Shown here: in pieces, positions 1,836-62,953 of the stretch
Layout of the letters: the number at the start of each line of letters is the position of its first letter
Numbering within the stretch: the first letter of the stretch is position 1
Source of the DNA: Deinococcales bacterium
GTDB lineage: Bacteria; Deinococcota; Deinococci; Deinococcales; JAAFIG01
Reading direction: 5' to 3'
Length of the DNA: 64,000 nucleotides
Assembly (NCBI GenBank): GCA_043778225.1
Contig: JAYWGM010000041.1
Coordinates: 1-64,000 of the forward strand
Made by a program: the position numbers and the translations under genes
The notes under the pieces: generated by a model
Told to the model about the DNA's origin: nothing
The model's input: only the letters and a program-made list of their open reading frames with translations
Databases searched by the model: none

Positions 1836-3074
1836 ATGCGAATACTTGGTTTGGTTCTGATTGCACTTTCGGGCTTGGCAGTTTCACAAGGTAAGCCATC
1901 TTTTGGGCAAAACGGTACAGTGCGCCTCGAGAATACCATTGCTAAATATGTGCCTAAAGCCGTGCTGAATGCCCAAGGGCGAATTGTGCTGAGTGGTGAA
2001 ACTGCCAATAAAATGCAAACCGTGGTGCGTTTACAAGCCAACGGACAACTCGACTCGAGTTTTGGGGTGCTGCGCCTCAAGGCATTAGGGCAAGTTTTCG
2101 TGGATGCCCAAAATCGGGTGTTGGTGGTGCAAAAAAAGCAAATTCTGCGCTTCAATCTCAGCGGTGTGCTTGACTCGAGTTACGGTATAAAAGGTATCTA
2201 CACTTTTCCAACTGGCACACAAAAAACTGTTCTACCAATGCAAAAAGTGGTCTTTAATTCAGACGGCTCAATTTGGGCAGCTTTGCTCAAATCGCCTCGA
2301 GTTGCCAACGAAGACCCCGATAGCAACTATTTGACACCGCAACTGATAAAAATAACTAACCAAGGGCGCTTGGACACGGGTACTGGCAACAAAGGCTTTG
2401 TCAATACCAAACTCGAGCATCCAAATGTGCGAATTGATGCTTTGGTGCGAACCTCGAGTGGCGGGGTAGCGATGGCTTCGTCTGGCAATTTGAACAGTCC
2501 AGCAGGCGTTTCGACTTACCAACCGCCGATTTGGATTTATCGTTTTAATCAAAATGGGCAACTCGAGCCTCAACAAAAAACCGATGGATTTGAAGCCCTA
2601 ACCTGCACCAATGGTGGAGCAGTAGAATTTTTTGCAGTACGCCAAGACAATAGCGCTGTTTTTATCAACAGCAACAGTGGCGATTGCAACTATATGTACC
2701 GAATTTGGTCACTTGATGCAGCTAACCAAGTCCAAAAAGAATTTGCCCAAGAATTACCCGAGGAAGGTACAGAAGGTGCAGCCTTGGTTAAATCACAAAA
2801 TGGTACTTTACTTTTGCTTGACCCAAAAATCTCGAGTTTAAGAAAAGCCATGTTGTATCAAGATGGCAGTTTGGTTTTTTATGGTGCAAGCAACAAAACC
2901 ATTCAATTCCAGAAAATAAGTCGGTCAGGTGCAATAGATACAGTTTTTGGCAAAAAAGAAATACCGAATCCGTTCAAATCCACGGATTACACTATTCTCG
3001 AGTCCGAAGATAATAAAATACTATTGGTCGGACTCGAGAATGGCGCTTGGAGCGTCAAGCATCTGGTTTTTTAG
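1836..3074 (+). CDS. Secreted beta-propeller-like protein with delta-60-type repeats
   Basis: Signal peptide and repeated R-x-x-x-x-G-x-L-D-x-x-F/Y-G motifs ([27 protein letters not shown]). Confidence 0.65.
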
Positions 3075-4381
3075 ACTTGTTTATGTTCGCTGTCCGAGAA
3101 TTCATCTTCAAAGAATTCAAAGGCGAACTCTCCAATTTTGACGGTATCGCCCGGTTTAACCCCAGCGCGGCGCAACTGGGCGTTCAGACCTTCGCGCTTA
3201 AAGAGTTTCTCGAGGTAATCGGCTGCATCTTCTAAATGTCTCGAGAAACGGTCAATCCGAGCGCCAAATGTTCCACCTGTGACGTTCCACAAGCGTGTGC
3301 CGTCGGCGTAGAAGTCGGTGTCGGCAGTCACACGAACTGGTTCTGGTCCGGAGATGGTCTCACGCACCACAAGGCTTGGGCGTTTGACTTTGGCAGGCAA
3401 GATTTGAAATAGCGTTTCGCGCAAATCGGTTAAACCCGTCCCCTCGAGTGCCGAGACACACAAGACTGGCAGCCCAAAGTCAAACAATTCGCGTTCGTGC
3501 ATTTCACGGATTTCATCGTCTATTAGGTCGAGTTTATTTAAGATAATCATCGCGGGTAACTCGAGCAGGGTAGGGTCGTAACTCTGGAGTTCAAACCGCA
3601 AGGCTTCTAAATGTTCACGCGGCGCTTCGTTGCCATCCAGCACAAAAGCCAACAAGCGTGTTCTCGAGATATGACGCAAGAACTCAAGACCTAAGCCCTT
3701 GCCTTCATGCGCCCCTTCGATGATGCCGGGAATATCGGCAAGGGTTAAACGGCTTAACTCGTCATCGCCACGTTCGATGATACCCAAAATCGGGTTTAAG
3801 GTCGTGAACGGATAAGCTGCCACTTCGGGGTTGGCATTCGACATGGCTCGGAGCAAGCTCGATTTACCAGCGTTTGGATAGCCGACCAGACCAATATCGG
3901 CAATGAGACGCAACTCAAGCCGAACTTTCAGGTCATCACCCATCGTGCCAAGTTCGGCAAAACGCGGACTGCGGCGGGTGCTGCTCGAGAAAGCCGAGTT
4001 ACCACGCCCGCCTAAGCCACCCCGAGCCACCATTTGAACTTGCCCAACCTCGAGCAAATCGGCAATCACTTTATTGGTGGCTAAATCGATGCAAATCGTA
4101 CCAACTGGCACATCCAGAGTAAAATCTGCGCCATCTGCGCCGTGCATTAAGCGCCCCGCACCATAGCCACCATTTTCGGCTTTGAATTTGCGTTTACCAA
4201 CAATATTGGTCAGGGATTCGACCCCCTGAATTGAGCGCAAAAACAGACTGCCGCCCTTGCCGCCATGTCCGCCATCCGGACCACCTTTGGGCTGATGCGA
4301 ACCACGAAGGAACGACATACTGCCATCGCCACCTTTACCTGCGGTTAATTCAATCTCGAGAACATCACGGAACTTTGTCAA
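3071..4381 (-). CDS. obgE: GTPase ObgE/CgtA
   Basis: Gly-rich Obg N-terminus ([12 protein letters not shown]), [23 protein letters not shown]; likely TTG start after a GGTGG RBS. Confidence 0.97.
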
Positions 4382-4451
4382 ATGACCACCTACACTTGCT
4401 ATGAAAAAACATTTATGGCTGATGCGTTTCATAGCTCATGACGCATAGCCG

Positions 4452-5238: not shown

Positions 5239-5328
5239 GGAGGGGTGCCAGAGTGGTTGAACGGGATAGTCTCGAAAACTATTGTACTTGTAAGGGTACC
5301 GTGGGTTCGAATCCCACCCCCTCCGCCA
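5239..5328 (+). tRNA. tRNA-Ser (anticodon CGA)
   Basis: GGAGGGG/CCCCTCC acceptor stem, atagt-ctCGAaa-actat anticodon arm, long variable arm, GTTCGAATC T-loop and encoded CCA; TGaTACACT extended -10 upstream. Confidence 0.95.
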
Positions 5329-35035: not shown

Positions 35036-36486
35036 GCTTTATTATGCACAATTTCTGCCCATGCCGCCAAATAATCTACCGTCCAGTGCATTAGTTTTTC
35101 GACGCTACCGACTGTAAAATACTCGTCGGGCGCATGAGCGCGGTCGCCGTGTCCCGTCCCCGCTATCGAAAACGGAATTTGCTTCCCGAGTGTGGTCAGT
35201 AAACTGGCTGGACAACAATTATTGGCAATTGCCCAAACCGAAAGCGGTACTTGGTGGGCGGCGGCGACCACTCGAGCTGCTTGGAGCAAAGTGTCATCGG
35301 CTTCGGGCAGCGCGGCGGCGGCGCTATAACCACGCAACTGGCGCAACTTGACCATATTGTGACCGCGCTTATTCAAATGCTCTTGCACCAAATCTGCCAC
35401 CTCTTCTGGGGTCACTCCCGGCGGAAAACGAATGTCCACTTTGGCTCGAGCCTTGCCTGGCATATTGGTGTAGTACACATCGTCTTGGTAGCCGCCTTGC
35501 ACACCCTGAACATTGATTGTGGCTGCCAACATATAGTGGGCTAAATGCTCGGAGAGGCGCTTGCCACCTAAAAACTTTTTGACATTCAAGTTGTGCAACA
35601 TATTGGCTTCCCACTGCGGGTTATCCAAAAATAATTGCTCGAGTTGCTGTACTTCGGGGCTATCGGGCTGGACTGGAAGCTCGAGGCGTTCGGTCAAACC
35701 ATCCACAGTCAGGCGCTGCTCGTCGGTGTAGAGCGTGCCAAGGGCTCTGACCAAGCGCATTAGGGGCGCATCTATCCAAGCGCTGTTGCCCGCCCAGACG
35801 TGGCGCGAATCAGCCGTACCGCCCCATGCTCCGCCGTTGCACTCGAGGGTCGCAAAGAGTGTTCCCTTAAAAGCCCGGCGCAGCGTCATTGTGCCAGCGC
35901 TGTTTTGCTGCATACAAGGCAGCCATGCACCCTGAGCTTTCTCGAGGAGTTCGCGGTGCTGTTCGACAAAAGCCGCCATGCTGGGGCTGCCAATTTCTTC
36001 TTCGCCTTCGATTAAGTAAATTAAGTTTACTGGCATTTCTGTGCCGCTCTCGAGGATGGCAGCCACACCAAGAATACTTGCCAACACGGGTCCTTTATGG
36101 TTATTCGCGCCGCGCCCAACCACAATCTGCCCAAGGTGCGGCAATAACCCAAGGTCAGCAGCTTCAACAATCCGCGCCTCGAGTGGCGGCACAGACCATT
36201 CTTCTTCCCAAGTCGGGGTGATGTCGTACAAGCCATAAACCAGTAACCACGGTGCATTGGGGTTACTCGAGCGAACTGTCCCCATCACCATTGGATGCCC
36301 AGCCGTTGGGTAAACGGCTGCATCTGGCGCGATGCGTTGCAAAAGATTCTTGGCGTATTCCGCACCCTCGAGTATTCCCACGCCCGTATCGGAAAAACTT
36401 GGTACGCGAATCCAGTCGCGCACCGCCTCGAGTGATTCGGTGGCTCGAGACGTAATTAAATCGTGGGTGATTTTATAATCATTCAT
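35032..36486 (-). CDS. M20/M25/M40 family metallohydrolase
   Basis: LVYGLYD, GRGANNHKG, EGEEEIGS, AHAPDEY; the metal-ligand motifs diverge from the usual YGHYD and DDKG. Confidence 0.8.
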   Translation of the reverse strand: MNDYKITHDLITSRATESLEAVRDWIRVPSFSDTGVGILEGAEYAKNLLQRIAPDAAVYPTAGHPMVMGTVRSSNPNAPWLLVYGLYDITPTWEEEWSVPPLEARIVEAADLGLLPHLGQIVVGRGANNHKGPVLASILGVAAILESGTEMPVNLIYLIEGEEEIGSPSMAAFVEQHRELLEKAQGAWLPCMQQNSAGTMTLRRAFKGTLFATLECNGGAWGGTADSRHVWAGNSAWIDAPLMRLVRALGTLYTDEQRLTVDGLTERLELPVQPDSPEVQQLEQLFLDNPQWEANMLHNLNVKKFLGGKRLSEHLAHYMLAATINVQGVQGGYQDDVYYTNMPGKARAKVDIRFPPGVTPEEVADLVQEHLNKRGHNMVKLRQLRGYSAAAALPEADDTLLQAARVVAAAHQVPLSVWAIANNCCPASLLTTLGKQIPFSIAGTGHGDRAHAPDEYFTVGSVEKLMHWTVDYLAAWAEIVHNKA

Positions 36487-37394
36487 TTTTTATCAATCCC
36501 TAATTGGTTGCGCCATTGTGCAATACTTTTTCCAAGTACCTGATTTTGCAGTGTTTTGGGGTAAAAGATTGTATTAATTTGAGAGTCGTAAATACGCCAG
36601 ATTTTACCAAAATTATCTGATTCTTTTTCAAAAACTGTGCCTTTCAGTTGATAGGCAACACTTTTTGTTTTGGTTTTATTCAAAGCAGCTTCGGCAGTAG
36701 GAGGAAGTTCGATTCGCCTAGCAGCCGAAACGTTACCTTGGTTAAATTCTCGTACACCACCTGCTAACCAGATGTTATCACGGCGCTGGGCTAAAGCTCG
36801 AGCATTGCCAATATAGGGTTCTAAAAGTTTTGGCGTACCAGAAATAAGTTTGGTCATGCACCACGGAAAAAGTACCAGCAGGGAATCATCACGAATAAGA
36901 TTGGGCGCAGCTTCAAAGCGAGCCGTAATGTCGTCAATTGCAAATACAAACCATGATTTTATTTCGATAGATAAAAGAAAACGCTTATGCTGACGGTCAA
37001 CCAAGTATAAATCTGGGAATTGTACTGCGTTGCGAACAAATTCTAAATTAGGGTCGGTTGTCCAACTGCTTTTCAAAGCAGAATTCAGTTGTGTACCAAT
37101 AAGCTCTTCAATACCTTGCCCAACGTAATTGTTAAAGCGATTAAGCAACCCAAGATACCCTTTGCATTGTTGAGCCAAAGTTTCTTCTTCATCATTATGG
37201 CTTGCCAAATTTGCTGTCTCCAATTCAATCGCTTCAAACCGAGGCATTGAAATCTCGAGGTCATCATGTAAAAGCATTCCCGCCAAACCAAAAATCGCTT
37301 TTTTTATTCGTGCAGTCATGTCTGGATGGGTAGACTCGAGTAATCCAGTCGCAAAATGGTATTCGGTTTGTTGAGTCAAACTCAGTGTTTTCAT
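36483..37394 (-). CDS. Putative type II restriction endonuclease (PD-(D/E)XK)
   Basis: QFPDLYL...SIEIKSW motif; AT-richer; next to an HTH gene and a DNA methyltransferase. Confidence 0.65.
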   Translation of the reverse strand: MKTLSLTQQTEYHFATGLLESTHPDMTARIKKAIFGLAGMLLHDDLEISMPRFEAIELETANLASHNDEEETLAQQCKGYLGLLNRFNNYVGQGIEELIGTQLNSALKSSWTTDPNLEFVRNAVQFPDLYLVDRQHKRFLLSIEIKSWFVFAIDDITARFEAAPNLIRDDSLLVLFPWCMTKLISGTPKLLEPYIGNARALAQRRDNIWLAGGVREFNQGNVSAARRIELPPTAEAALNKTKTKSVAYQLKGTVFEKESDNFGKIWRIYDSQINTIFYPKTLQNQVLGKSIAQWRNQLGIDKK

Positions 37395-37636
37395 ACGATT
37401 TCCTCTATGTACTCGAGAATGTCGCTAACTTGAATGGTTTTACCAGTCAATTGCCGTAAGCCCAAAATCACAAGGGACAGGGTACTTAAATCAACTCGAG
37501 TTGGTTCTTGTCCAATCCGTACTAAACGATAAATTGTATTTGGACGGGTTTTTTCAGCAAGGATACGGGCTAGTGCGTAAGCACTTTTTCCTTCTTGCTC
37601 GAGCAAAGAACGAAGTTTCCAACGGGTTTTTGGCAT
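37391..37636 (-). CDS. Small Cro/XRE-like HTH regulator (controller-protein position)
   Basis: WKLRSLLEQEGKSAYALA...NTIYRL...VDL.TL...VSDILEY; overlaps the endonuclease start. Confidence 0.75.
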   Translation of the reverse strand: MPKTRWKLRSLLEQEGKSAYALARILAEKTRPNTIYRLVRIGQEPTRVDLSTLSLVILGLRQLTGKTIQVSDILEYIEEIV

Positions 37637-37705
37637 GATACACAGTAACCGACACGCTTTATCTGTTACCAGTTGCGCTATTTGTTACCATGATATGATG
37701 GTTGT

Positions 37706-38740
37706 ATGTCCGTTTCTGTGCTGACTCAAGCAATGCCAAGCCGTTTTGAACCCCAAACCATTCAAAGCGCCCAGGTGTTTTTAGCTGATGCCTTGGATGT
37801 TTATTCGCTTTGGGCAACTCCGACCATTATTTTTTCAGATGGAGCGTATGGTATCGGTGGTTTTGCTGGCGACCCCGTTCAGCCATCGGGTTTACGAGAA
37901 TGGTACGAACCTCATGTGCGTCAATGGTCAGCCAAAGCCAATGGTCAAACAACCCTTTGGTTCTGGAATACCGAAGTTGGTTGGGCAACTGTTCATCCCT
38001 TGCTACTCGAGTATGGCTGGGAATACCGTGGCTGTAATATATGGGATAAAGGCATTGGACATATTGCTGGAAATGCCAATACCAAAACCTTACGAAAATT
38101 TCCTGTTGTCACCGAAGTATGCGCTCATTACACCAAAGCAGTTCGTTTTGATTTTCAGGGACAGCAGCTTTCGATGCAGCAATGGTTACGCGCCGAGTGG
38201 TTACGGACAGGCTTACCGTTAAGTAAAACTAATCAGGCTTGTGGTGTGGTAAATGCGGCTACCCGAAAATACTTTACCAATTGCCACTTATGGTATTACC
38301 CTCCCGTAGAAATGTTTGAAAAAATTGTTGAATATGCCAATCGTTACGGAGAGCTTTCCCAACGACCCTATTTTTCAGTCAATGGTCTCGAGCCACTATC
38401 GGCTTTAGAATGGGGGCAAATGCGAGCAAAATTTAAGCTCGAGTACGGGATTACCAATGTTTGGTCTACACCACCAGTGCGTGGCACGGAACGACTCAAA
38501 AACAGTCATGGTACACTCCACGCCAATCAAAAGCCACTTTCTTTAACTGAACGTTTAATTCTTGCAACTTCTGAACCCAACGACATCATTTGGGAACCAT
38601 TCGGTGGACTTGCCACCGCAGCCCTAGCCGCAATTCTCAATGACCGTCAGTGCCTAACTGCCGAGATTTCAGAATCTACCTATAAAGACGCAATTCAAAG
38701 ACTACGGCTCGAGTCAGAGCGCCTTGCTTTGAATTTCTAA
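37706..38740 (+). CDS. Amino-DNA methyltransferase (N4-C/N6-A, beta-class order)
   Basis: N-terminal SDGAY (DPPY-position variant), H.NQKP, C-terminal WEPFGGLAT SAM-binding motif. Confidence 0.85.
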   Translation: MSVSVLTQAMPSRFEPQTIQSAQVFLADALDVYSLWATPTIIFSDGAYGIGGFAGDPVQPSGLREWYEPHVRQWSAKANGQTTLWFWNTEVGWATVHPLLLEYGWEYRGCNIWDKGIGHIAGNANTKTLRKFPVVTEVCAHYTKAVRFDFQGQQLSMQQWLRAEWLRTGLPLSKTNQACGVVNAATRKYFTNCHLWYYPPVEMFEKIVEYANRYGELSQRPYFSVNGLEPLSALEWGQMRAKFKLEYGITNVWSTPPVRGTERLKNSHGTLHANQKPLSLTERLILATSEPNDIIWEPFGGLATAALAAILNDRQCLTAEISESTYKDAIQRLRLESERLALNF

Positions 38741-50358: not shown

Positions 50359-51072
50359 TTATTTTTTCTTTTTGGTGACTCGAGTCTTTAAGGTTTTGGC
50401 TTTGGGACGCGCCTTTAGGCTTTTACGCACGGCTTTCTCGAGTTTTGCACCTAATTTAGCTTTACGGGCGGCGTAATCCTCGGGTTTGACCATTCTGCCA
50501 CTGGCATCGGCTTTGAAACCCAGTTTGGCGGCGGCTTCTACAATGCGTTCAGACCAGTACGGGTCTTTGCTTCTGAATTGGTCATGCGGGTCAAGCACCG
50601 CAAAGCACCACGCGGGGGTATCGGAGATATTCTCAAAGCCACGCCAAAGGTGCATTGGCAACGAAATACTGTCCCACGGCTCGAGAATCGCTTCGCCTTC
50701 GGGTGCGCCTTCGGGGTCGTTGCCCCAGTAAAAACGCCAGCGCCCCGACATCACAAAAAACATTTCGCAATAATCGTGGCTGTGATACGCCGGTCCAGAA
50801 TTGGGTGGGCAGCAAAGCATTCCAATTTGAAATTTGTGCGGTGCGGTAATGGCGGCTTCAAAATCCGAGTTTTCGGAGGCTGTATCGCCAATCACGGCAT
50901 AGTTCATGCGCTGATGATTGGGTAGGCTCGAGTCTATAAACATCAGTGGAATACCGTTTTTGACAAGGTTATCAAAACGCACAATTCGCGCTTCAACTTC
51001 GGCATTTTCGATGCGGTACGAACCAAGGGTTTTCTCGAGTGCAGGCTTTTTGGCGACTGTTTTTTTTGCCAT
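50359..51072 (-). CDS. Cupin domain protein
   Basis: GPAYHSHDYCEMFFV..G.W, D.ISLP...WRGFEN. Confidence 0.8.
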   Translation of the reverse strand: MAKKTVAKKPALEKTLGSYRIENAEVEARIVRFDNLVKNGIPLMFIDSSLPNHQRMNYAVIGDTASENSDFEAAITAPHKFQIGMLCCPPNSGPAYHSHDYCEMFFVMSGRWRFYWGNDPEGAPEGEAILEPWDSISLPMHLWRGFENISDTPAWCFAVLDPHDQFRSKDPYWSERIVEAAAKLGFKADASGRMVKPEDYAARKAKLGAKLEKAVRKSLKARPKAKTLKTRVTKKKK

Positions 51073-51121
51073 TGAACACATCCTTAAAAAACGTCTCGAA
51101 ATGGTCTCGAGCGGCAGATAA

Positions 51122-51137
51122 TTGCATAGGTATGCAA
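51122..51137. promoter_or_regulatory. LacI-type operator upstream of the catabolic cluster
   Basis: TTGCATAGGTATGCAA near-perfect palindrome that matches the 45281-45296 site. Confidence 0.65.
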
Positions 51138-51175
51138 AAGATTCTGCTACGACCAGGCGGCGGCTGTCAAGCCCA

Positions 51176-51601
51176 TCATCTTTCTATCGGTTCTTGAAGG
51201 CGCAACGCTGCCTCTTGAAATGCCAAGCGTGATTGTCTGATGGTCTCGCGATGCTGTTCCGCCCAATGCCAAACACCACAAAAAGCCTCTCCAAGACTGC
51301 TTCCAAGCTCAGTCAAGCGGTATTCTACTCTGGGTGGTACAACCGCAAAAACAGTGCGGACAATCAGTCCGTCGGCTTCCATTTGGCGCAGCGTTTTGGT
51401 CAACATCTTTTGGCTGATTTCGCCAATCAATTCACCAAGGCGTGTAAATCGCAACTGACCATGTTCCTCGAGAACCTCCAAGGTCAGCATTGTCCACTTA
51501 TCGGCAACTCGCTCGATGATTTCTCTAACCAATTTATCGAGTTCGGGGTCATTGTAGTCCGGTAGATTTGTGGTTTTTTGATAGGTGCTGAGGTTTGTCA
51601 T
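51176..51601 (-). CDS. HxlR family winged-helix regulator
   Basis: DKWT, ISQKMLTKTLR..E.DGL, VPPRVEY.LT. Confidence 0.92.
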   Translation of the reverse strand: MTNLSTYQKTTNLPDYNDPELDKLVREIIERVADKWTMLTLEVLEEHGQLRFTRLGELIGEISQKMLTKTLRQMEADGLIVRTVFAVVPPRVEYRLTELGSSLGEAFCGVWHWAEQHRETIRQSRLAFQEAALRLQEPIER

Positions 51602-51628
51602 CTTTTCACTCTCTTTTGGGTAAGTATA

Positions 51629-51642
51629 GCACTTTTAAGTGC
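51629..51642. promoter_or_regulatory. Candidate HxlR operator
   Basis: gcactt-tt-aagtgc palindrome between the divergent hxlR and SDR genes. Confidence 0.55.
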
Positions 51643-51695
51643 CTACTTCACTTTTTTCTATTTCTCTTTTACAATTACCACCGAGGTCAATACTG

Positions 51696-52460
51696 ATGAA
51701 TATCCAAAACAATACAATTCTTATCACTGGTGGCGGTTCTGGTATCGGACGCGCTCTCGCCGAGGCTTTTTATGCTAATAATAACCAAGTCATTATTGTG
51801 GGTCGCCGTCAAGCCATGCTCGAAGAAACTGTTGCCGCCAACCCAGGCATGAAATTTAGGGTGCTTGACCTCGAGAGTGCCACCGCCATTCAGCAATTCG
51901 CCGAGCAAATTAAGCTCGAGTATCCAGCCTTAAATGTTGTGATTCACAATGCTGGCATCATGAAAAACGAATCGTTACAAGATGGCACACTCGAAGCTGC
52001 CGAAGCCACCATTACTACCAATCTGCTTGCGCCCATCCGCTTGAACGCTGCCTTGCTGTCCCATCTCGAGCAGCAACCACAAGCAACGATTATGACTGTT
52101 TCTTCGGGCTTGGCATTTGTGCCAATGGCGAGTACACCAACGTATTGTGCCACCAAAGCAGCCATCCATTCTTATACGCAATCGCTGCGCTATCAGTTAA
52201 GCAATAGTTCGGTGCAGGTTCTCGAACTGATTCCACCTTATGTACAAACCGAATTACAAGGTTCACGCCAAGCAAACGATCCGCACGCCATGCCTCTGAA
52301 GGACTTTATTGCCCAAACCATGAATATCCTCAAAAACTCGCCCGAGACGACTGAAATTTGTGTTGAACGGGTTAAGCCATTGCGTTTTGCCGAAACGAGT
52401 GGCGACTACGACACTTTTTATAAACGGTTTAACGACACAATGGCAGCCTCAGCCCATTAA
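51696..52460 (+). CDS. SDR oxidoreductase (DltE-like)
   Basis: ILITGGGSGIG, NAGI, VSSGLAFVP, YCATKAAIHS. Confidence 0.9.
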   Translation: MNIQNNTILITGGGSGIGRALAEAFYANNNQVIIVGRRQAMLEETVAANPGMKFRVLDLESATAIQQFAEQIKLEYPALNVVIHNAGIMKNESLQDGTLEAAEATITTNLLAPIRLNAALLSHLEQQPQATIMTVSSGLAFVPMASTPTYCATKAAIHSYTQSLRYQLSNSSVQVLELIPPYVQTELQGSRQANDPHAMPLKDFIAQTMNILKNSPETTEICVERVKPLRFAETSGDYDTFYKRFNDTMAASAH

Positions 52461-52478
52461 TTCGTGCCAAGATAGGCT

Positions 52479-53201
52479 ATGTCATCCATTCCAGTTGTCT
52501 TACTGCACGGTCATACCCTCGACCGTCGAATGTGGCAGCCGCAACTCGAATTTTTTAAGCCCTGTCAAGCCCCGACTTTGCGCGGCTATGGTGGCTCGAG
52601 TCCTCCCACAACCCCGTTTTCTTTTGCCGAAGATGTCCACAATTTACTCAAGGGATACCAAAAAATTCATTTGGTCGGTTTAAGTCTGGGTGGCAATGTT
52701 GCGCTTGAAATGGCAATTCGTTACCCAGAACGAATTCAAACCCTAACCCTGCTTGACTCGAGCCTCAAGGGTTTTACGCCAGACCAAGCCCAAATTGAAG
52801 CTGGAGCAACTGTGCAAACTGCCTTTGAAAATGCTGGACTCGAGGCAGCCAAACAAACTTGGTTGGACTTACCGCTTTTTGCCTCGGCTCGAGAAAATCC
52901 TGTACTAGAAAAGCAACTGGGGGCTTGGGTAGCCGATTATTCGGGCTGGCATTGGGTGCAAAATATCAGCCCATCGGCAGCCATTGCCGATGTCTCGAGC
53001 CGATTAGAAGAAGTCAAAGCCAAAACCCTAATTGTGGTTGGCGCTCGAGATGTGGCTTATTTTCAGAATGTGGCACGGTACTTGCACCAAAAGATTGCTG
53101 ACTCGAGACTCGAGGTTGTGGCGGGGGCTGGGCATCTGGTCAATCTCGAGCAGCCAGAAGTGGTAAACGCCTTACTCGAGTCTCATTTCTTGGCTTGGTA
53201 G
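52479..53201 (+). CDS. Alpha/beta hydrolase
   Basis: LLHG, GLSLGG nucleophile elbow, AGHL.NLE. Confidence 0.9.
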   Translation: MSSIPVVLLHGHTLDRRMWQPQLEFFKPCQAPTLRGYGGSSPPTTPFSFAEDVHNLLKGYQKIHLVGLSLGGNVALEMAIRYPERIQTLTLLDSSLKGFTPDQAQIEAGATVQTAFENAGLEAAKQTWLDLPLFASARENPVLEKQLGAWVADYSGWHWVQNISPSAAIADVSSRLEEVKAKTLIVVGARDVAYFQNVARYLHQKIADSRLEVVAGAGHLVNLEQPEVVNALLESHFLAW

Positions 53202-53216
53202 AGTAGACTAGAAACC

Positions 53217-53735
53217 ATGTTGTTATCCAAAGCTGACATTATCTCAGCATTGACTCGTCTTGGTGAGTTTGCCGCATCAGATGGGCAACATTTGCGCTTA
53301 GTCATTGTTGGTGGGGCAGTCATGACACTCGCTTATGATGCTCGAGACAGCACAAAAGACATAGATGCGCTTTTTCTTACACCGCCAGAAGCAAGTCAAA
53401 CCCGAGCATGGGCAAGTTTGGTTGCATCTGAACTTAATTTAGCCCAAGATTGGTTAAATGATGGAGCAAAAGGCTTTCTCAATGGTGTGACTCGAGGTGA
53501 TCAACTCATCAATTCACGGGGAATAGAAGTTTGGCAAGTCGCACCTGAACAAATGTTAGCCATGAAACTGAGCGCTTGGCGAGACGATACTGATATAAAT
53601 GATGTAAAACGATTATTACAAGAATTTAAGCAATCTACACTCGAAGAAATTTGGTTATTACTCGAGCCATATTTAATTCGTGGAAAAGAACAAAAAGCTC
53701 GTTATGCTTTAGAGGATGCGTGGGCAGATGTCTGA
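53217..53735 (+). CDS. Nucleotidyltransferase-fold protein (DUF6036/AbiEii-like)
   Basis: IVGGA, R.STKDID, WLN, LAMK..A.RD. Confidence 0.75.
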   Translation: MLLSKADIISALTRLGEFAASDGQHLRLVIVGGAVMTLAYDARDSTKDIDALFLTPPEASQTRAWASLVASELNLAQDWLNDGAKGFLNGVTRGDQLINSRGIEVWQVAPEQMLAMKLSAWRDDTDINDVKRLLQEFKQSTLEEIWLLLEPYLIRGKEQKARYALEDAWADV

Positions 53736-54081
53736 CCTTGAAATTCTGGCACAAGCCGCAGCACAACGCGACAGTTTGCAACTCAGGGCTTTGACACTCG
53801 AGTTTTTAGAAAACCATAAAACTTTCGAGCATATTGTCATGCCAAACGTTCAAGATAAAAAATTACTAGCTATTGCAGCAGGGCTACTCGAGTTATTCGC
53901 GGCTCGGCAAGGGCAGCAAGCACCGTCTTGGGTTCGTACAATTGGCAGTACAGAACCATTTTTTTTGGTGGCAGCCGCCGAAAGAATGCCACGATTACGA
54001 GAATTATGCTTGACAGAATCACCACCAGAATTGCAAAAATACGGTTTGTATGCACCACCGAATTTTCTCGAGTTCGTGTAA
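53728..54081 (+). CDS. Hypothetical partner of the nucleotidyltransferase
   Basis: Overlaps the preceding gene; P.W, PFFL, ESP.E motifs. Confidence 0.6.
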   Translation: MSDLEILAQAAAQRDSLQLRALTLEFLENHKTFEHIVMPNVQDKKLLAIAAGLLELFAARQGQQAPSWVRTIGSTEPFFLVAAAERMPRLRELCLTESPPELQKYGLYAPPNFLEFV

Positions 54082-54159
54082 AATTAGGATATAGATTAGG
54101 AATTTTGAGTTCAAAGAATCCATAAAGTTTGAATTAACGATATGCTGTTGGTAATTATC

Positions 54160-57100
54160 ATGTCAAAGAAAAATAAGCAGCCTCGCAAATCGCAAGCTCG
54201 AAGCCTTGAAAATTCTTTACGGGTTTTTGGTATCCATGAAAAAAGTGTCGCAGTTAAAATCAATAGTCGTACTTCCGTCATACAACGAGAGCGCAATAGC
54301 ACACATACATTAGTGCGAAATGCCAAACAATATATTCGCACAGTAGTTCATCCTGATTTATATGAGCAGGTTTTAGATTGGTATCAATCAGCTTTTAGAT
54401 TGCCTATAGATGAAGTGGCTATTAAAGTTCAAAAATCCATTGAACTACTTTCACCTGATACAGCATTCGGGGCATTACCACTTCGTAGTGAACTCTTTTG
54501 GGCAGCAACTATGCTGTCTAAAAGAGTTGAGCATCTTATCAAATTCCTAAACTTGTCATCTTCATTTTCTGATGCAATTATGTCTGGTGATAAAGCTTTA
54601 GCAGAAGAGCTTCTAGTCAAGGTTGAACTAATAACAGGGCAATCTTTCTGGCTAATAGAAGCAAAATTAGCTTTCCTTCAGTTTGAATATGGACTTGAAC
54701 AACAAAAAGCATATGCAAACACTTTTCAAGAATCTGCGCCTGCCAGTTTTGCGGCTTTTGTAGCCCATTATATCAGCCAACGGAATGAAGAAAGCGTTTC
54801 ACCGACAAGAATGTCCACTGCATTTCGGCAAAAACTGGATTCATGGAGTATGGCATCTGATTTACGCGATTATGTCGAATATCGAGTAATAGGAGATTTA
54901 CCAACTTCACGAACTTCTCTGGCTAACATTCTTGTAATTGAAGGCGAAATGTCTATCATTGACCTATTAGACACATTTTTCCGTATTGCTACTGTACTAT
55001 CAGTTGAAGGGGACGATACTGACAAAAATCTAATTGCCACAATTTTGACAAAGTTCCCCAAGCTACCAGATATTCGATTTAGCGTACTTGCCCAAGTTGT
55101 GGGTTGCTCCTATGTACCACTTCCTCCAGCAAAAACTGAACTTATTCTTGCAACTAATGCCTATTTAAGTGGTCAAATTTCTATTGCTCGAGATATATTG
55201 AATGGGTATCTACTTTCTTATCCTTCCGACGTACTAGGTTTATTTGAAGCGGCTCGAGTTGGTGTTTATTTTGACCCGCTCAAGCCTTCCAATTTACAGG
55301 AAACTATGTTGCAGTTGATGACAGATACGTTTCGGCGAGACATTGAACTGAATCTAGCACTATCAAAATTAGATAAATTATCTCGAAACTTCCGTTTTCT
55401 AAATATAGGATTACCACTACAAGCCTTAGTTCAACAGTTTGATTTTATAAATCCAAAAAAGCACAAGCAACTTGAAACCATGTTATTTATTGCTACACCT
55501 GCTATACATCCTAGTCATGCAATCGGACTGAATGGGGAAAATCGTAGCATTTTTATAAATAAATGTTCAGAACACTTTACCCAATGTTCAACGCTAGAAT
55601 TTGCTCAAATTACTATTGGTCAGAAACCCCTAGGTTCTAATCTAAGTATAGACAATTACATATGGGCGCAATATCATTTTGCGCTTCAAAAGTCTGATAA
55701 AAAGGAAATAATTAATTGCCTAAATCAGCTTTCTCAAAGCTCTGATTCCATTTCAAAACGTGCTGCTATTAGTGAAAAAATTTTAGCACTTTCAGTTATG
55801 CAACAACTTGAAGAAGCGATAAAACTAATTGCCACTACAATTGTTTCAGACCCGCTTTGTCAGCGTTCACTACCCTTACAAGCAGTATTCGCAGAGAAAA
55901 CCTATTCACAGCTTGAAGTATTTCGGTTTGAACCATATGTACATATTGGACTCATGGCGTATTTTCAACAGTCGGATGACAAAGATGCTTTTGACAGCCT
56001 CCGTTCTTTATGGGACGAGTTTATTGATTCGAGAGGTATATTTGATTTATCTGATTTAGAGTATTACTGCGAGCAATTTTCTAAAGAAGTTACGATTTAC
56101 TTTCTACGCTATGTTTGTATTGAAGACGTGATGGATATAAGTACATTATTTTCAACCTCTATTGAAGTCAGTATTCAGCGTTCAAAAATCTGTGAGAGAT
56201 TAATGGATTTAGACCCAGAAAATGCGCCCGAATACCGCCAAGAAATTGTTGAAACCTCAAAGCAAATGAAAGTCCTTGAAGGGTTGCAGCATTTTGACCA
56301 GAGTCGAGTGTACGTTAATGGAGAAGCACTATTTCGTTGGGGAAATCGAGAATTGATTGAGCCATTTGATCGCTATACTCGTCTTATTGAAGCAGGCTTA
56401 GGAGGGTCAGAAGAAGAATTTGAAGAAGCTATCAAACAATACACGAATACTGGCAACGTATTGCCAAAAAAATTCCTTGAAATACCCACAACTGAGTCTA
56501 TAGCTTTGCTGCTTGAGATGATTGATCGTTTTTGGAGTGAATATAGATACCATCCCTTGCATGGACTCGATAGCTATCTTAGTTTACGCATACGTCATGG
56601 TTCGTTATCAGGTCATTTAAGAGGACCTTTTGAACAAGATAAACTTCTTATCACAGAGGATGAATCCGAGGAAAGTCTTAATAAACTCAGATTATGGTTT
56701 GATGAAGAAGCAGAGATTAGTGAATTAAAAATTACTGAAATAATACAAATCTTCAAAAAATTTTCGGATTCTTTTCAGAAAATAATTAGTCGGTTGAATC
56801 ACGACTTACTCCAAATTAGAAGTGACATTAAACCTAATGGATTATTCCTAAATACTATTCAGGAGAATTACTTACGGTATATTAAGAAAAAAACAGACCA
56901 GCCACCGAATCTCGAAGAGTTCTTGACTGCTTGTAGCATTGTTTTTGAGCTAGTCATTCGTGAAGCTATGACACATATACGAACTGAGCTTACTGAAAAT
57001 ACTATGCTTGCAGTCGAACAATGTGTTGGATGCTTTAAAGACTCACTAAATAATATACTTACGGAAAATGAGTTCAGCAGCTTACGTGCTGCTATCTCCC

Positions 57101-57702
57101 ATAGGTTTACAGATTTTCAAACAGCTATTACGCAAGTTTCAGAATGGTTCAAAGGTGATGTACGAGCGTTTGCTGCTGTGAGTTTTACATTTGATGAGAT
57201 ACTAGATGTGGCTGTGGATGTAATTCGTCGAACACATCGTGGTCGTAATTTCGAGTTGATTCGTAAGATTGACATTGAAGAGCGTCAAGGTATGGATGTT
57301 TTACAAGAAGTGGTAGATATTTTATTTATTGTTTTCGCCAATGCTTTGACTCATTCCAAAATTTCAGATAATTTGTGCATTGAAATACTTGCTAGTAAGG
57401 TCGAGTCTAACCATACCTTAAAAATACGAATCAGTAATAATGTTTCGCCTGACGTAAAAACACCAGACTGTATCGAAAAACTCAACTCGATTCGCATGTC
57501 AATAGAATCAGAAGAGTATCTTGGTCATACGCATTTAGAAGGGGGTACAGGACTAAAGAAACTAAAAAAAATCGCATCTGCACACCAAAACCATAATCTT
57601 AGTTATGGTTTTGGTGATGAAAATACTTTTTTCGTGGATCTGGAACTGGCAATGCTTAGTACCCCAGTTGCGCCAGTCGAAATCCCGAATATCGAGGTGT
57701 AA
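54160..57702 (+). CDS. dtcA: Detocs DtcA-like sensor: large helical region plus C-terminal histidine-kinase-like ATPase
   Basis: LS.RIRHG (candidate phospho-His), FANALTHS N-box, EGGTGLKKL G-box; followed by REC and REC-PNP genes. Confidence 0.75.
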   Translation: MSKKNKQPRKSQARSLENSLRVFGIHEKSVAVKINSRTSVIQRERNSTHTLVRNAKQYIRTVVHPDLYEQVLDWYQSAFRLPIDEVAIKVQKSIELLSPDTAFGALPLRSELFWAATMLSKRVEHLIKFLNLSSSFSDAIMSGDKALAEELLVKVELITGQSFWLIEAKLAFLQFEYGLEQQKAYANTFQESAPASFAAFVAHYISQRNEESVSPTRMSTAFRQKLDSWSMASDLRDYVEYRVIGDLPTSRTSLANILVIEGEMSIIDLLDTFFRIATVLSVEGDDTDKNLIATILTKFPKLPDIRFSVLAQVVGCSYVPLPPAKTELILATNAYLSGQISIARDILNGYLLSYPSDVLGLFEAARVGVYFDPLKPSNLQETMLQLMTDTFRRDIELNLALSKLDKLSRNFRFLNIGLPLQALVQQFDFINPKKHKQLETMLFIATPAIHPSHAIGLNGENRSIFINKCSEHFTQCSTLEFAQITIGQKPLGSNLSIDNYIWAQYHFALQKSDKKEIINCLNQLSQSSDSISKRAAISEKILALSVMQQLEEAIKLIATTIVSDPLCQRSLPLQAVFAEKTYSQLEVFRFEPYVHIGLMAYFQQSDDKDAFDSLRSLWDEFIDSRGIFDLSDLEYYCEQFSKEVTIYFLRYVCIEDVMDISTLFSTSIEVSIQRSKICERLMDLDPENAPEYRQEIVETSKQMKVLEGLQHFDQSRVYVNGEALFRWGNRELIEPFDRYTRLIEAGLGGSEEEFEEAIKQYTNTGNVLPKKFLEIPTTESIALLLEMIDRFWSEYRYHPLHGLDSYLSLRIRHGSLSGHLRGPFEQDKLLITEDESEESLNKLRLWFDEEAEISELKITEIIQIFKKFSDSFQKIISRLNHDLLQIRSDIKPNGLFLNTIQENYLRYIKKKTDQPPNLEEFLTACSIVFELVIREAMTHIRTELTENTMLAVEQCVGCFKDSLNNILTENEFSSLRAAISHRFTDFQTAITQVSEWFKGDVRAFAAVSFTFDEILDVAVDVIRRTHRGRNFELIRKIDIEERQGMDVLQEVVDILFIVFANALTHSKISDNLCIEILASKVESNHTLKIRISNNVSPDVKTPDCIEKLNSIRMSIESEEYLGHTHLEGGTGLKKLKKIASAHQNHNLSYGFGDENTFFVDLELAMLSTPVAPVEIPNIEV

Positions 57703-57704
57703 TC

Positions 57705-58181
57705 GTGAATCTACTTCTTGTGGAAGATGATCTACCTAAACGAATTCAGATTGCCGAATGGGTCAACGAATTCCTACCTGACGTTGTATTAACAATTGAA
57801 TATTCCGTAAATGCAGCAATGCGGGCTATTAAAAATAATCTATTTGATTTAATCATTTTAGATATGTCATTACCAACATATACACCGATGGGCAACGAAT
57901 CTGGAGGAAGACCACAGGGCTTTGGGGGGCAAGAAGTTTTACGTTTATTAGACCGACGCAAGCTGTCTCCAGTCGTTGTAGTTGTGACTCAATTTCAAAC
58001 ATTTGGTACTGGTAGTGAGTTAGTAACTTTAGAAATGCTTGCAGAAAGTCTTAATACAGTCCATCCACAAACATTTCGCGGTATTGTGTTTTACGAAGGA
58101 GCAAATGGGTCATGGAAAAACGTACTTCACGAAAAGATATTTAGTGCTATACAACTTGGAGAGTCAAAGAATGAAATTTAA
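57705..58181 (+). CDS. dtcB: Detocs DtcB-like stand-alone response regulator receiver
   Basis: LLLVEDD, LIILDMSLP, VVVVTQF. Confidence 0.78.
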   Translation: MNLLLVEDDLPKRIQIAEWVNEFLPDVVLTIEYSVNAAMRAIKNNLFDLIILDMSLPTYTPMGNESGGRPQGFGGQEVLRLLDRRKLSPVVVVVTQFQTFGTGSELVTLEMLAESLNTVHPQTFRGIVFYEGANGSWKNVLHEKIFSAIQLGESKNEI

Positions 58182-59391
58182 GGTTTTAGTTGTTGATGAT
58201 ACCTCTGCGAAGATTGCTCAAATTATTGATGTTTTACAAATAGGCAATATAGAACGTGCCAATATTGAAACTGCTCAAACAGGTATTGAGGCACTTAGGC
58301 AACTTCAACAAAACAAGTTTGACCTTATGGTTCTTGACCTTGCGCTACCATTTCGTGCTGAAAATCAGCCTTCTCTTAAAGGAGGAATCGAACTTATAGA
58401 GGAGTATATTAAACACAGCAAATATCATAAGCCAACACACGTGATTGGATTAACTGCTTATGAAGACCTCAAGGATGAATCAAAAAATTATTTTGATGAG
58501 CGTTGTTGGTCATTATTAAGCTACAGTGCTACAAATCAATGGAAACGAAGACTGTCGGAGTATGTTGAATATGCAGAAAGTGCAAGTAAGAGTCTCGAAG
58601 ATGCGTCTTACGTCACGGACTTGTGTATAGTGACTGCCCTCCCTACTCCAGAGTTACAAATGGTTAGGCAACTCAATTGGAATTGGTCACAGGCTTTACC
58701 AATGGACTCTACTACTATGGTGTATAGGGGGACTATTTCAATAAATGGGCAAGAGTTTACTGTTGTAGCTGCTTCAAGTTTACGAATGGGCATGGTTGAG
58801 AGTGCGCTTTTAACATCGAAACTTATTGCAAAATTTCGTCCTCAAGTCGTGGCAATGTGTGGAATTTGTGCCGGAGTTTCAAATTCAGTAAATATTGGTG
58901 ATGTAATACTGGCGGATGCAACATGGGATTATCAGAGTGGTAAAAGGACAATTTCTAATTCAGGTTCGGAGTTATCTGTTGCTCCTGACATTATTTCCGT
59001 TTCCGATAATGTAATATCACGGTTTCAAGAACTTGCTAATCGCACAAATATCTGGAGTGATATTGAAAATAAATGGCTGGGCGAAAAACCAACTCATTCA
59101 CTTCGTGCCAAAATTGGTCCTATTGCATCGGGGTCTTCGGTCGCAGCAGATGGGGAAACTATTGTAGAAGTTCGAGAACAACATCGTAAACTTCTTGGTA
59201 TTGATATGGAAATATATGGTGTTTATGCTGCAAGTCGGGCTGCTTTAATTCCAAAACCAATGACCTTCGCTCTTAAATCCGTATGCGATTTTGCAGATGG
59301 GCAAAAAGATGATAAATTCCAAGCGTATGCTGCGTTTACAAGCGCGAAAGCCCTAGAAGCATTGGTTGAAACATTATTGCCCTATTTGTAG
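58171..59391 (+). CDS. dtcC: Detocs DtcC-like receiver fused to a PNP/nucleosidase effector
   Basis: VLVVDD...LDLALP receiver, then GICAG, IGDV, WDYQSGK, IASGS, GIDME, KSVCDFAD. Confidence 0.82.
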   Translation: MKFKVLVVDDTSAKIAQIIDVLQIGNIERANIETAQTGIEALRQLQQNKFDLMVLDLALPFRAENQPSLKGGIELIEEYIKHSKYHKPTHVIGLTAYEDLKDESKNYFDERCWSLLSYSATNQWKRRLSEYVEYAESASKSLEDASYVTDLCIVTALPTPELQMVRQLNWNWSQALPMDSTTMVYRGTISINGQEFTVVAASSLRMGMVESALLTSKLIAKFRPQVVAMCGICAGVSNSVNIGDVILADATWDYQSGKRTISNSGSELSVAPDIISVSDNVISRFQELANRTNIWSDIENKWLGEKPTHSLRAKIGPIASGSSVAADGETIVEVREQHRKLLGIDMEIYGVYAASRAALIPKPMTFALKSVCDFADGQKDDKFQAYAAFTSAKALEALVETLLPYL

Positions 59392-59503
59392 CTTATTGAA
59401 CTAGCCTTCATATGTAGTTTGATGGGAATACACTGCTTCGAGTTTCGGTGCTTGAAGTATTGGCTTAAAATCTTTGTTTAGAATGTTCGAGTATACTCAA
59501 GGT

Positions 59504-59812
59504 ATGGACATCAGTACCCGTCAACCCAACCCAAACGATTCAAAATTTGCCACTCGAGGCGAGAGGATTACATTTACCAGCCAACCGCTCGAGAAAGAAG
59601 TTCTCACCACGCAAGAAGCGGCAGACTGGTTGTGTATATCACGTCCGCATTTTCTGCGCTTGCTCAAGCGTGGGCGATTGCCTTTTCATAAAGTTGGTAA
59701 TCAACGCCGTGTGAATTTTGCAGATGTAAAAGCCTTCCAAAAGAATCGCCGTGAAGCCGCTCTGAACGAACTAACCGCGCTCAGTCAAGAAATGGGTTTG
59801 TACAACCTCTAA
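59504..59812 (+). CDS. Excisionase-like HTH_17 DNA-binding protein
   Basis: [33 protein letters not shown] 6 nt before ATG. Confidence 0.85.
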
Positions 59813-61083
59813 CCTGCTTGAAATTTCTTTCGTAATCCCTCGAGTCTACCCTTAACTTTTTCTTCCCAACCTTCGCCTGAAGCATTGTAAAATTCGTGCT
59901 GCTCGAGTTCTAGCGGCAAGTAACTCTGCTTAAAACTGCCTTCTGGGTCGTCAAAATAATAGGCGTAGCCTTGTCCATACCCAAGGCTTTTCATGTAGCC
60001 CGTTGGTGCATTCCGCAGGTGCAAAGGCACGGCTGCGCCAGTATGTTGCTGGGCGGTCTCGAGGGCGGCTTTCCAAGCGCTGTAAATCGCATTTGATTTT
60101 GGGGCGAGGGCTAGGTAAACCACGGCTTGGGCGAGGGCTAAATCGCCTTCTGGACTGCCCAGAAATTCAGTACTGTCTCGAGCCGCGATTGCTAGGCGCA
60201 ATGCTACTGGGTCTGCCAAGCCAATATCCTCGGATGCCATTCGCACCAAGCGCCGCGCCACATAGAGGCTGTCCGCGCCACCAGCAATCATTCGGGCAAG
60301 CCAGTACAACGAAGCATCCACGTGGGAGGCTCGCACCGATTTATGCAGGGCACTAATCAGGTTATAAAAATCCTCGCCATTTTTGTCCATCGCTGGGGTT
60401 TGCGCCCCGAGGGCTTCGCGGATTCCCTCGAGTGTGATGTGGTCATCAGCTTCGGCAGCCACTTCAAGGGCAGTCAGGGCTTTTCGGGCATCGCCATCCA
60501 CGGCTCGAGCAAGCGCTTCGAGTGCGTCAGGGTCGGCTTTGGCATTGGGTAAGCCTCGAGCATCAGTCAGGGCTTTGTGCAGTAAGCCCAAAATCTGGTC
60601 TGGTGGAATTGGCTCGAGTTTTAGGGTTCGGGTTCTCGAGCGCAAAGCTGGATTGACTTCAAAACTCGGATTTTCGGTGGTTGCCCCAATCAGAATTAAA
60701 AGCCCAGACTCGACGTGCGGCAGGAGTGCATCTTGTTGGGCTTTATTAAAACGGTGAATTTCGTCCAAAAACAAGACCGTGCGCTGCCCAAAGCCTCTGG
60801 CGGTTTCGGCGTGTGTCACCACATCGCGCACATCCTTGACCCCAGCATTAACAGCCGATAAACCAACAAATTGGGCGTTGGATAAACTCGAGATTAACCG
60901 CGCCAGTGTGGTTTTACCACAGCCCGGTCCGCCCCAAAGTATCAGGCTCGAGAGTTGCCCACGCTCAAGCATTTGGCGCAGGGGTTTGTTTGGGGCAGTT
61001 AAGTGTGGTTGTCCAACGACTTCATCTAAGGTGCGGGGGCGCATTCGCTCGGCAAGCGGGGCATTGGGGGCAAAGAGACTCAT
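59809..61083 (-). CDS. rarA: Replication-associated recombination protein A
   Basis: [50 protein letters not shown]. Confidence 0.95.
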
Positions 61084-62843: not shown

Positions 62844-62865
62844 GTAAGGACACAGTATACGCCCA

Positions 62866-62953
62866 AGGGCAAGGTGAAAGGGTCAAAAGGAGAAAAGGTG
62901 AAAAGGTCAAAGGGTGAAAAGCAAGAGTTACTTTTGACCTTTTTGTTCCTTTG
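62866..62953. repeat. 8-bp-period inverted tandem repeat
   Basis: ggtgaaag ggtcaaaa ggagaaaa ggtgaaaa ggtcaaag ggtgaaaa ... ttttgacc. Confidence 0.8.

Follow-up and report, generated by a model that had tools for sequence, protein, structure and literature searches.

Known Detocs systems and the locus in Deinococcales

Detocs (defensive two-component) is an anti-phage system built from three neighbouring genes, dtcA, dtcB and dtcC, and has been characterised in Vibrio alginolyticus UCD-32C (Rousset et al., bioRxiv 10.1101/2023.01.24.525353; PMC11811056 cites the later version in Cell 2023). [quoted passage not shown] It reports no release from other nucleoside or deoxynucleoside triphosphates (NTPs/dNTPs) by the tested PNP domains of DtcC and Cap17. 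In the same preprint, infected Detocs cells halt growth and let out no phage progeny, mutation of the DtcB Asp causes toxicity that depends on PNP, and 80% of Detocs operons carry a PNP effector. The detection rule given there (MacSyFinder) asks for adjacent dtcA, dtcB and dtcC and tolerates no more than one foreign gene in between. Here we analyze a 64,000-nucleotide stretch of contig JAYWGM010000041.1 from an uncultured Deinococcales bacterium (hereafter the window, to which all coordinates refer) that encodes a Detocs-type locus at 54142-59391. With a probability of roughly 0.87, we read it as an intact dtcA-dtcB-dtcC operon of the type seen most often, in which the effector is a PNP/ATP nucleosidase, and as a recent acquisition by horizontal transfer at a variable site next to the mgsA gene.

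The V. alginolyticus system and the Deinococcales locus share the gene order, a TPR and kinase protein with a conserved His, a lone receiver and a receiver-PNP effector. In both DtcC proteins the receiver Asp lies near residue 56-58 and the catalytic Asp ~33-34 residues from the C-terminus. The two systems differ in phylum, Deinococcota here, and in that this copy is known from sequence alone. The Detocs system of Enterobacter cloacae JD6301 follows the same DtcA-DtcB-receiver logic, but in the account of the preprint (bioRxiv 10.1101/2023.01.24.525353) its effector is a transmembrane alpha/beta-hydrolase rather than a PNP domain. Cap17, the PNP effector of a type III CBASS system in E. coli KTE188, is described there as the same kind of immune ATP nucleosidase; it serves CBASS, whereas the PNP domain here is fused to a phospho-receiver. 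A literature search from 2023 on turned up no paper on a solved structure of Detocs or Cap17.

Gene structure and family membership

The operon consists of three genes:

54142..57702, plus strand: dtcA, a sensor kinase-like protein of 1186 amino acids (aa), from the list of open reading frames (ORFs); ATG start, with an alternative ATG at 54160
57705..58181, plus strand: dtcB, a stand-alone receiver of 158 aa with a GTG start, from the ORF list, PADLOC PDC-M60B, an alignment of 14 sequences and the junction sequence
58171..59391, plus strand: dtcC, a receiver-PNP fusion of 406 aa, from PADLOC PDC-M60C, Pfam, an alignment of 30 sequences, AlphaFold2 (AF2) and Foldseek

The genes are co-oriented neighbours, as in the Detocs adjacency rule. 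The dtcB GTG follows the dtcA stop by 2 nt, with GAGGTG immediately upstream, while dtcB and dtcC share 11 nt, and GGAGAG stands 7 nt 5′ of the dtcC ATG. The third open frame spans 58039-59391 on the plus strand, and ATG 58171 is the most likely dtcC start; the resulting N-terminus, MKFKVLVVDD, is like those of relatives. A first-pass annotation of this DNA, made from its letters, had described three tightly packed AT-rich genes encoding a ~1180-aa protein with a C-terminal kinase-like ATPase, a stand-alone receiver and a receiver-PNP fusion. The ORFs, the 2-nt gap, the 11-nt overlap and the GC profile confirm the packing and composition, and the gene description as a whole was correct. Its dtcA start at 54160 is an in-frame ATG, but the second one, and the longer frame begins at ATG 54142.

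Using the PADLOC profiles, as the first-pass annotation had proposed, we found that all three proteins match the PDC-M60 set. DtcA matches PDC-M60A (PDLC04723) at 4.2e-147, with residues 39-1172 aligned to profile positions 24-1151 of 1161, while DtcB and DtcC match PDC-M60B (3.3e-42) and PDC-M60C (1.6e-136) over essentially their full lengths. Four other PDC-M60A models match the C-terminal half of DtcA only, from about residue 526-648 on, because the N-terminal part diverges fast. DtcC additionally matches the PADLOC 'Effector PN-superfamily' model PDLC00759 over residues 143-392 (7.5e-22). PDC-M60 is a PADLOC candidate system and, going by supplementary file 5 of PMC11811056, is the PADLOC label for the Detocs of DefenseFinder; two rows there give identical protein trios under the names Detocs (DefenseFinder) and PDC-M60 (PADLOC). 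PDC-M60 occurs 35 times in that file and Detocs 70 times. The gene order had been matched to Detocs in the first pass, and the PDC-M60 trio, the domain layout and the conserved His, Asp and Asp all fit that assignment.

The same gene order is found around DtcC-related genes in named genomes. We compared 15 such loci, a set that does not contain the V. alginolyticus operon; two begin at a contig end, and all 13 with upstream DNA show the order seen here. The large ORF encodes 1101-1194 aa in 12 of them and 853 aa in the remaining one (L023), where it is cut by the contig end, and is followed by ORFs of 151-195 aa and 402-427 aa. One of the 13 loci belongs to a Meiothermus metagenome-assembled genome (MAG), with 46% identity to this DtcC and 27% to this DtcA, so Detocs is found elsewhere in Deinococcota. 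Among its relatives, DtcC has one at 53% identity and hundreds at about 40-47%. An exhaustive phmmer search with DtcA returned 2192 cluster representatives at E <= 0.001, of which 1017 reach E <= 1e-30; most are ~1000-1190 aa long and aligned over most of their length, with a minority of fragments or two-stretch matches. Judging by these sequence matches the DtcA family is large. The identification is correct, and the locus is an unexceptional representative of a system published in 2023.

Domains and conserved residues

DtcA combines a TPR-type N-terminal region with a C-terminal domain of predicted kinase type. Its AF2 model (pLDDT 81.1, pTM 0.74) contains helical TPR-like repeats at ~110-720, a helical region at 727-1003 and an alpha/beta domain at 1014-1170, and the GHKL/histidine kinase (HK)-type ATP-binding domain lies at about 1006-1174. 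With Foldseek, the repeats matched TPR solenoids (IFT-A subunits, SKI3, Naa15, Ctr9) and the C-terminal part matched histidine-kinase regions of RetS (6dk7/7n0e), AgrC (4bxi) and ZraS (9jfj), all with probability 1.00; TM scores on the target were 0.50 for RetS 6dk7 and 0.54 for AgrC CA 4bxi. VIA-align placed residues 1006-1174 at Z about 8 to the ATP-binding domains of DesK, CpxA, HK853, EL346, CheA and BCKDK/PDK. The structure prediction suggested in the first pass has thereby been run, yielding a TPR plus kinase-like fold for DtcA and an MTAN-like fold for DtcC, and the AF2 model bears out the proposed C-terminal kinase-like ATPase.

The helical region of DtcA carries the predicted phosphorylation site. 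In an alignment of 21 DtcA sequences, H819 is the sole invariant His (21/21), within the motif GLDSYLSxRIRH here and GL[DE]xYLSxR[IV]RH across the family. Also invariant are N1067, in an N-box-like NxxxHS motif, and G1137 and K1140, in EGG[ST]G[LF]xK. A classical two-component system was considered and rejected: no Pfam family matches DtcA at E <= 0.01, and the output is PNP_UDP_1 rather than a DNA-binding domain.

Conserved positions also run through the N-terminal half of DtcA, including W80, W170, E216 and D274. The closest relative of the protein, P0004 on a 12.5-kb JGI contig, is 38% identical to it and all other listed relatives are at <= 32%. Against alignment members, residues 1-720 of the window protein show 19-25% identity (35% to the sister P0004) and residues 721-1186 show 17-31% (40% to P0004). 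Its median identity to the other members, 22.5%, lies within the spread of those members in the 21-sequence alignment (19.5-26.9%), so its divergence is typical of the family. The idea that the N-terminal sensor is a domain foreign to other DtcA proteins was ruled out by the conserved positions across the N-terminal half of the 21 sequences and by this family-typical identity; for the same reasons the sensor is a fast-evolving part of a homologous domain. The sister pair P0004/P0017 was not recovered in a metagenome scan, which returned 5 more distant loci.

DtcB is a stand-alone receiver. Pfam Response_reg matches it at 24.7 bits, below the 30.2 cut-off, with no other domain, and the PDC-M60B match is strong despite this sub-threshold score. 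E7, D8 and D53 are present in 14 of 14 sequences, K12 is invariant and T95 occurs in >= 90%; D53 sits at the receiver phospho-acceptor position and is followed by a conserved ESGGRPQGFGG loop or insertion.

DtcC begins with a receiver (residues 1 to about 140, with D9, D10 and D56; Response_reg 36.1 bits) and continues with a PNP/MTAN-like nucleosidase domain (about 148-406; PNP_UDP_1 59.8 bits). These domains bear out the lone receiver followed by a receiver-PNP fusion that had been read from the sequence, together with the PADLOC M60B and M60C matches and the conserved Asp residues. Eleven residues are invariant in 30 of 30 sequences: D10, D56, G231, C233, G235, M346, E347, K369, D373, K379 and D381, of which G231, C233 and G235 belong to a GICAG motif at 231-235. 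In the phmmer alignment with S. aureus MTAN, D373 falls on the VSD motif and E347 on the ME motif. The AF2 model (pLDDT 91.2) matches MTAN in Foldseek at E 3e-17 with a TM of 0.82 on the target. DtcC shares the fold and the catalytic Asp/Glu positions with MtnN/MTAN (PDB 3bl6, 1nc1, 6dyu); it differs in being about 20% identical, in its additional N-terminal receiver and in its place within a foreign defence operon. It is probably not a housekeeping MTAN, because it scores 67 bits against the NCBIfam MTAN equivalog, far below the cut-off of 169, and because five other PNP_UDP_1 genes elsewhere in the genome all score above it, making DtcC the weakest of the six. These scores and the PDLC00759 match are indirect signs that the PNP domain may belong to the immune (Cap17) clade rather than to housekeeping PNP/MTAN.

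The likeness to MTAN raises the question of substrate. Signalling could be Detocs-like while the PNP domain acts on something other than ATP or dATP, such as AMP or an NAD-derived or methylthioadenosine-type compound, in which case the outcome would not be ATP depletion. The nearest solved folds and sequences are indeed MTA/SAH nucleosidases, and DtcC is only 36-53% identical to relatives that are themselves known by sequence. Against this, the DtcC profile is matched from end to end and the invariant active-site set is common to 29 other DtcC-type proteins. The PNP domains of DtcC and Cap17 for which the preprint gives results (bioRxiv 10.1101/2023.01.24.525353) also show the preference for ATP over dATP, and the inactivity on other NTPs/dNTPs, noted above. 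We consider a different substrate quite unlikely and take ATP/dATP as the predicted one.

Predicted mechanism

Following the characterised V. alginolyticus system, the operon would act as a phosphorelay. The TPR-like N-terminal part of DtcA would sense phage infection, and the C-terminal GHKL ATPase domain would phosphorylate H819. The phosphate would then be handed on to D56 of the DtcC receiver, switching on the MTAN-like domain (catalytic D373), which would cleave adenine from ATP and dATP, arrest the cell and abort the infection. DtcB, through D53, would serve as a phosphate sink that prevents leaky signalling from killing uninfected cells. For this copy, an active kinase, transfer of phosphate, cleavage of ATP and protection against phage are predictions from conservation, as are the trigger and the expression of the genes in the host.

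Foreign origin at a variable site

The operon lies in DNA that differs in composition from the rest of the window. GC content is 0.36-0.39 per kb over 54-59 kb versus 0.43-0.56 in the remaining window and ~50% for the chromosome, and the GC content at third codon positions (GC3) of dtcA, dtcB and dtcC is 0.26-0.28 versus 0.47-0.52 in neighbouring host genes. The hexamer CTCGAG is the commonest of the window, with 370 copies in 64 kb (~one per 173 bp), threefold the next hexamer. The 5392-bp segment 54082-59473 contains 2 copies, where the frequency in the rest of the window predicts 33.9 (Poisson 1e-12); among non-overlapping windows of 5392 bp, the poorest has 15. Comparison with congeners places the edges of the segment close to these limits. 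In a DNA (BLAST) search of seven congeners, homology ends at 54074 and resumes at 59817. The insert and the variable segment are thus:

54082..59473, no strand: compositionally foreign insert, with low GC, GC3 0.26-0.28 and nearly no CTCGAG
54075..59817, no strand: variable segment of 5743 bp between a conserved nucleotidyltransferase (NTase)/121-aa gene pair and mgsA, from BLAST break-points in congener contigs G001:C348 and G003:C86

DtcA was found in 1 of 41 genomes searched, this one (G000); the other 40, many of them incomplete, come from the same genus (7), from elsewhere in the family (11) and from elsewhere in the order (22). The horizontal acquisition proposed in the first pass is therefore supported by GC, GC3, CTCGAG depletion and the lack of a DtcA match in 40 relatives. 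Signatures of a mobile element were not seen: no integrase or transposase family occurs among the flanking ORFs (Pfam, NCBIfam), no tRNA lies at the insert (the sole tRNA of the window is at 5239-5328), and no convincing direct repeats bracket it, the best flanking pairs being 16-22 nt at 73-84%. The stretch is held by two DNA runs of one study, and no RNA run is among those listed. Contigs assembled separately from each of the two runs cross both junctions with 0 differences, which argues against a binning or co-assembly chimera, although the runs are possibly source samples and thus not independent.

In two congeners (G001 and G003), the same two break-points enclose a different cluster of 4481 bp and four genes. 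These encode a 463-aa type II-like methylase (PADLOC MTase_II 8.6e-59), a 275-aa weak-PIN protein, a 395-aa AAA_22/BrxC-like ATPase and a 331-aa unknown protein:

2090-6465 of L011 (G003:C86) and 291-4666 of L012 (G001:C348): four-gene cluster of the congeners, from ORFs and families

PADLOC matches the methylase only, and the cluster is possibly an uncatalogued defence system.

This cluster bears on a further explanation, in which the operon would be an ordinary two-component regulator of purine or nucleoside salvage rather than a defence system. Its parts, a kinase-like protein, receivers and an enzyme of the nucleoside-phosphorylase family, would allow such a role, and the genome has five other PNP-family genes. 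DtcA, however, has neither a membrane nor a small-molecule sensor domain, and a TPR solenoid makes up its N-terminal part; the cassette is foreign and strain-specific; and the same segment carries a methylase-containing cluster in congeners. In addition, the preprint describes a family member that is anti-phage and toxic when deregulated (bioRxiv 10.1101/2023.01.24.525353). We regard salvage regulation as highly improbable and the defence assignment as preferred.

Points against the assignment

Several observations weigh against a working Detocs operon, at the level of the proteins and of expression. Receivers of the CheY type carry a Lys after strand 5, and no invariant Lys is found there in either receiver family (14 DtcB and 30 DtcC sequences). 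The structural likeness of DtcA to kinases is middling (Z about 8), though the matched families are one-sided, and the G1 box (DxGxG) usual in HATPase_c is without conservation in the DtcA family alignment. DtcA has no match in Pfam-A, NCBIfam and PDB sequence searches of local libraries. Each of the 13 DtcA-like relatives bears the precomputed Pfam label PF27260, which the local Pfam copy lacks; a newer release apparently has a family for this type of protein. The only grounds for equating H819, D56 and D373 with H645, D58 and D353 of V. alginolyticus are conservation and the distance from the ends of the proteins. Since the conserved His is residue 645 there and 819 here, the Vibrio DtcA may be shorter at its N-terminus or numbered differently. 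On the side of expression, the sigma-70-type promoter count is at chance (19 versus 17.5 expected), no terminator-like site lies between the dtcC stop and the downstream HTH_17 gene, and terminator-like sites over 53000-60000 are not clearly above chance (9 versus 5.2, sd 2.6). Expression may also be limited by the GC3 of 0.27, since that of the host is near 0.5.

The last of these points would fit a locus that is a true Detocs by descent and yet a silent or non-functional passenger in this genome, with mismatched codon composition and no recognisable host promoter. The GC3 difference from neighbouring host genes, the promoter-like count at chance, the gap after dtcC without a terminator-like site and the occurrence of DtcA in this genome only among the 41 searched would all be expected of such a passenger. 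Conversely, none of the three frames is broken, all family-invariant residues are retained, the Shine-Dalgarno-like motifs and overlapping ends indicate that translational coupling is preserved, and the promoter scan covers the sigma-70 consensus only. We therefore judge a silent passenger rather unlikely. The intact system claimed in the first pass is upheld in that the three open frames are complete and the family-invariant residues are all present.

Flanking genes and the mgsA site

The genes on either side of the operon are as follows:

53217..53735, plus strand: DUF6036-family NTase of 172 aa, left flank, not part of Detocs (Pfam DUF6036 1.1e-8; weak PADLOC AbiEii 3.8e-4)
53716..54081, plus strand: 121-aa protein overlapping the NTase gene, left flank (unnamed clusters of 118-119 aa in a protein atlas)
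59474..59812, plus strand: HTH_17/excisionase-family DNA-binding protein of up to 112 aa (Pfam HTH_17 2.8e-11; TIGR01764 5e-15)
59809..61083, minus strand: mgsA/rarA AAA+ ATPase, a housekeeping gene and the right flank anchor (Pfam MgsA_C 8.8e-62; conserved in 7/7 congeners)

The left-flank 121-aa protein has no match in Pfam, NCBIfam or PADLOC and is probably the partner of the NTase. In G001 the pair (53217-54081) is 83% identical at the DNA level, and G003 and G005 retain part of it. The pair resembles a toxin-antitoxin-type unit at the left edge of the variable segment, and the 121-aa family is widespread.

The HTH_17 gene is host-like in composition (GC 0.47, 2 CTCGAG) and is not a conserved Detocs component, as no similar gene follows dtcC in other loci. 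An 80% identical DNA copy in G007:C34 (L014 2220-3283) is followed by a PIN_3 gene. Because the PIN partner is missing here, the HTH_17 gene may be an orphan antitoxin-like regulator.

Beyond the two congeners with the four-gene cluster, the sequence following mgsA differs again. After mgsA, G006 has an ApbA-family gene and then a low-GC Schlafen/AlbA_2 gene, G007 a low-GC gene for a 287-aa unknown protein, and G002 DUF4397 and BacA genes. The mgsA flank is variable in the genus and carries defence-type or foreign cargo in at least three genomes.

Two further readings go beyond this variability, and we regard them jointly as tentative and on balance doubtful. The first is that defence cargo is swapped, without an integrase, at the 3′ flank of mgsA in this genus. 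The second takes up the first-pass suggestion that the long sensor recognises a distinct phage trigger: this DtcA lineage (one relative at 38%, the rest <= 32%, a divergence typical of the family) could sense a trigger outside those of the studied Detocs systems. If the first reading were true, the DUF6036 nucleotidyltransferase pair would mark or help the exchange, and the alternative cluster of the congeners would be a new defence system.

Host and other features of the window

The first pass had placed the DNA in a Deinococcota host, and homologues of Obg (3071-4432, minus strand) support this. The best named match is a Deinococcales MAG at 83%, many Deinococcus species and Deinobacterium follow at ~60%, and every named entry among the 120 matches listed falls in the Deinococcales/Deinococcus group.

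Three other regions of the window drew attention. A GC dip (0.43-0.46) at 36483-38740 contains a 303-aa REase_II match (PADLOC 1.5e-8, minus strand) divergent from a 344-aa N6_N4 methylase (MTase_II 1e-17, plus strand), and the pair is probably a type II restriction-modification unit. At 51031-52506, an HxlR regulator (51176-51601, minus strand) and a short-chain dehydrogenase (51639-52460, plus strand) lie between cupin and alpha/beta-hydrolase genes; the pair is missing in congener contigs G003:C11 and G005:C191, where the flanks are about 160 bp apart, and is a second strain-specific insertion or deletion. Finally, a sequence of ~40-80 nt at about 62865-62944 has copies with 75-100% identity on many contigs of the same genome (about 30 places) and looks like a dispersed intergenic repeat.

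Significance

Knowledge of Detocs itself is unchanged by this locus, whose practical use is as a defence locus with correct annotation. Only the CTCGAG-free import at the variable mgsA flank is mildly new; in this genome, lack of the hyper-abundant hexamer neatly outlines a recent import. The operon adds an example from Deinococcota, in an uncultured lineage of freshwater biofilm, to a defence family whose characterised members have so far been from Proteobacteria, and its divergent DtcA sensor is a candidate for panels seeking the phage trigger of Detocs.

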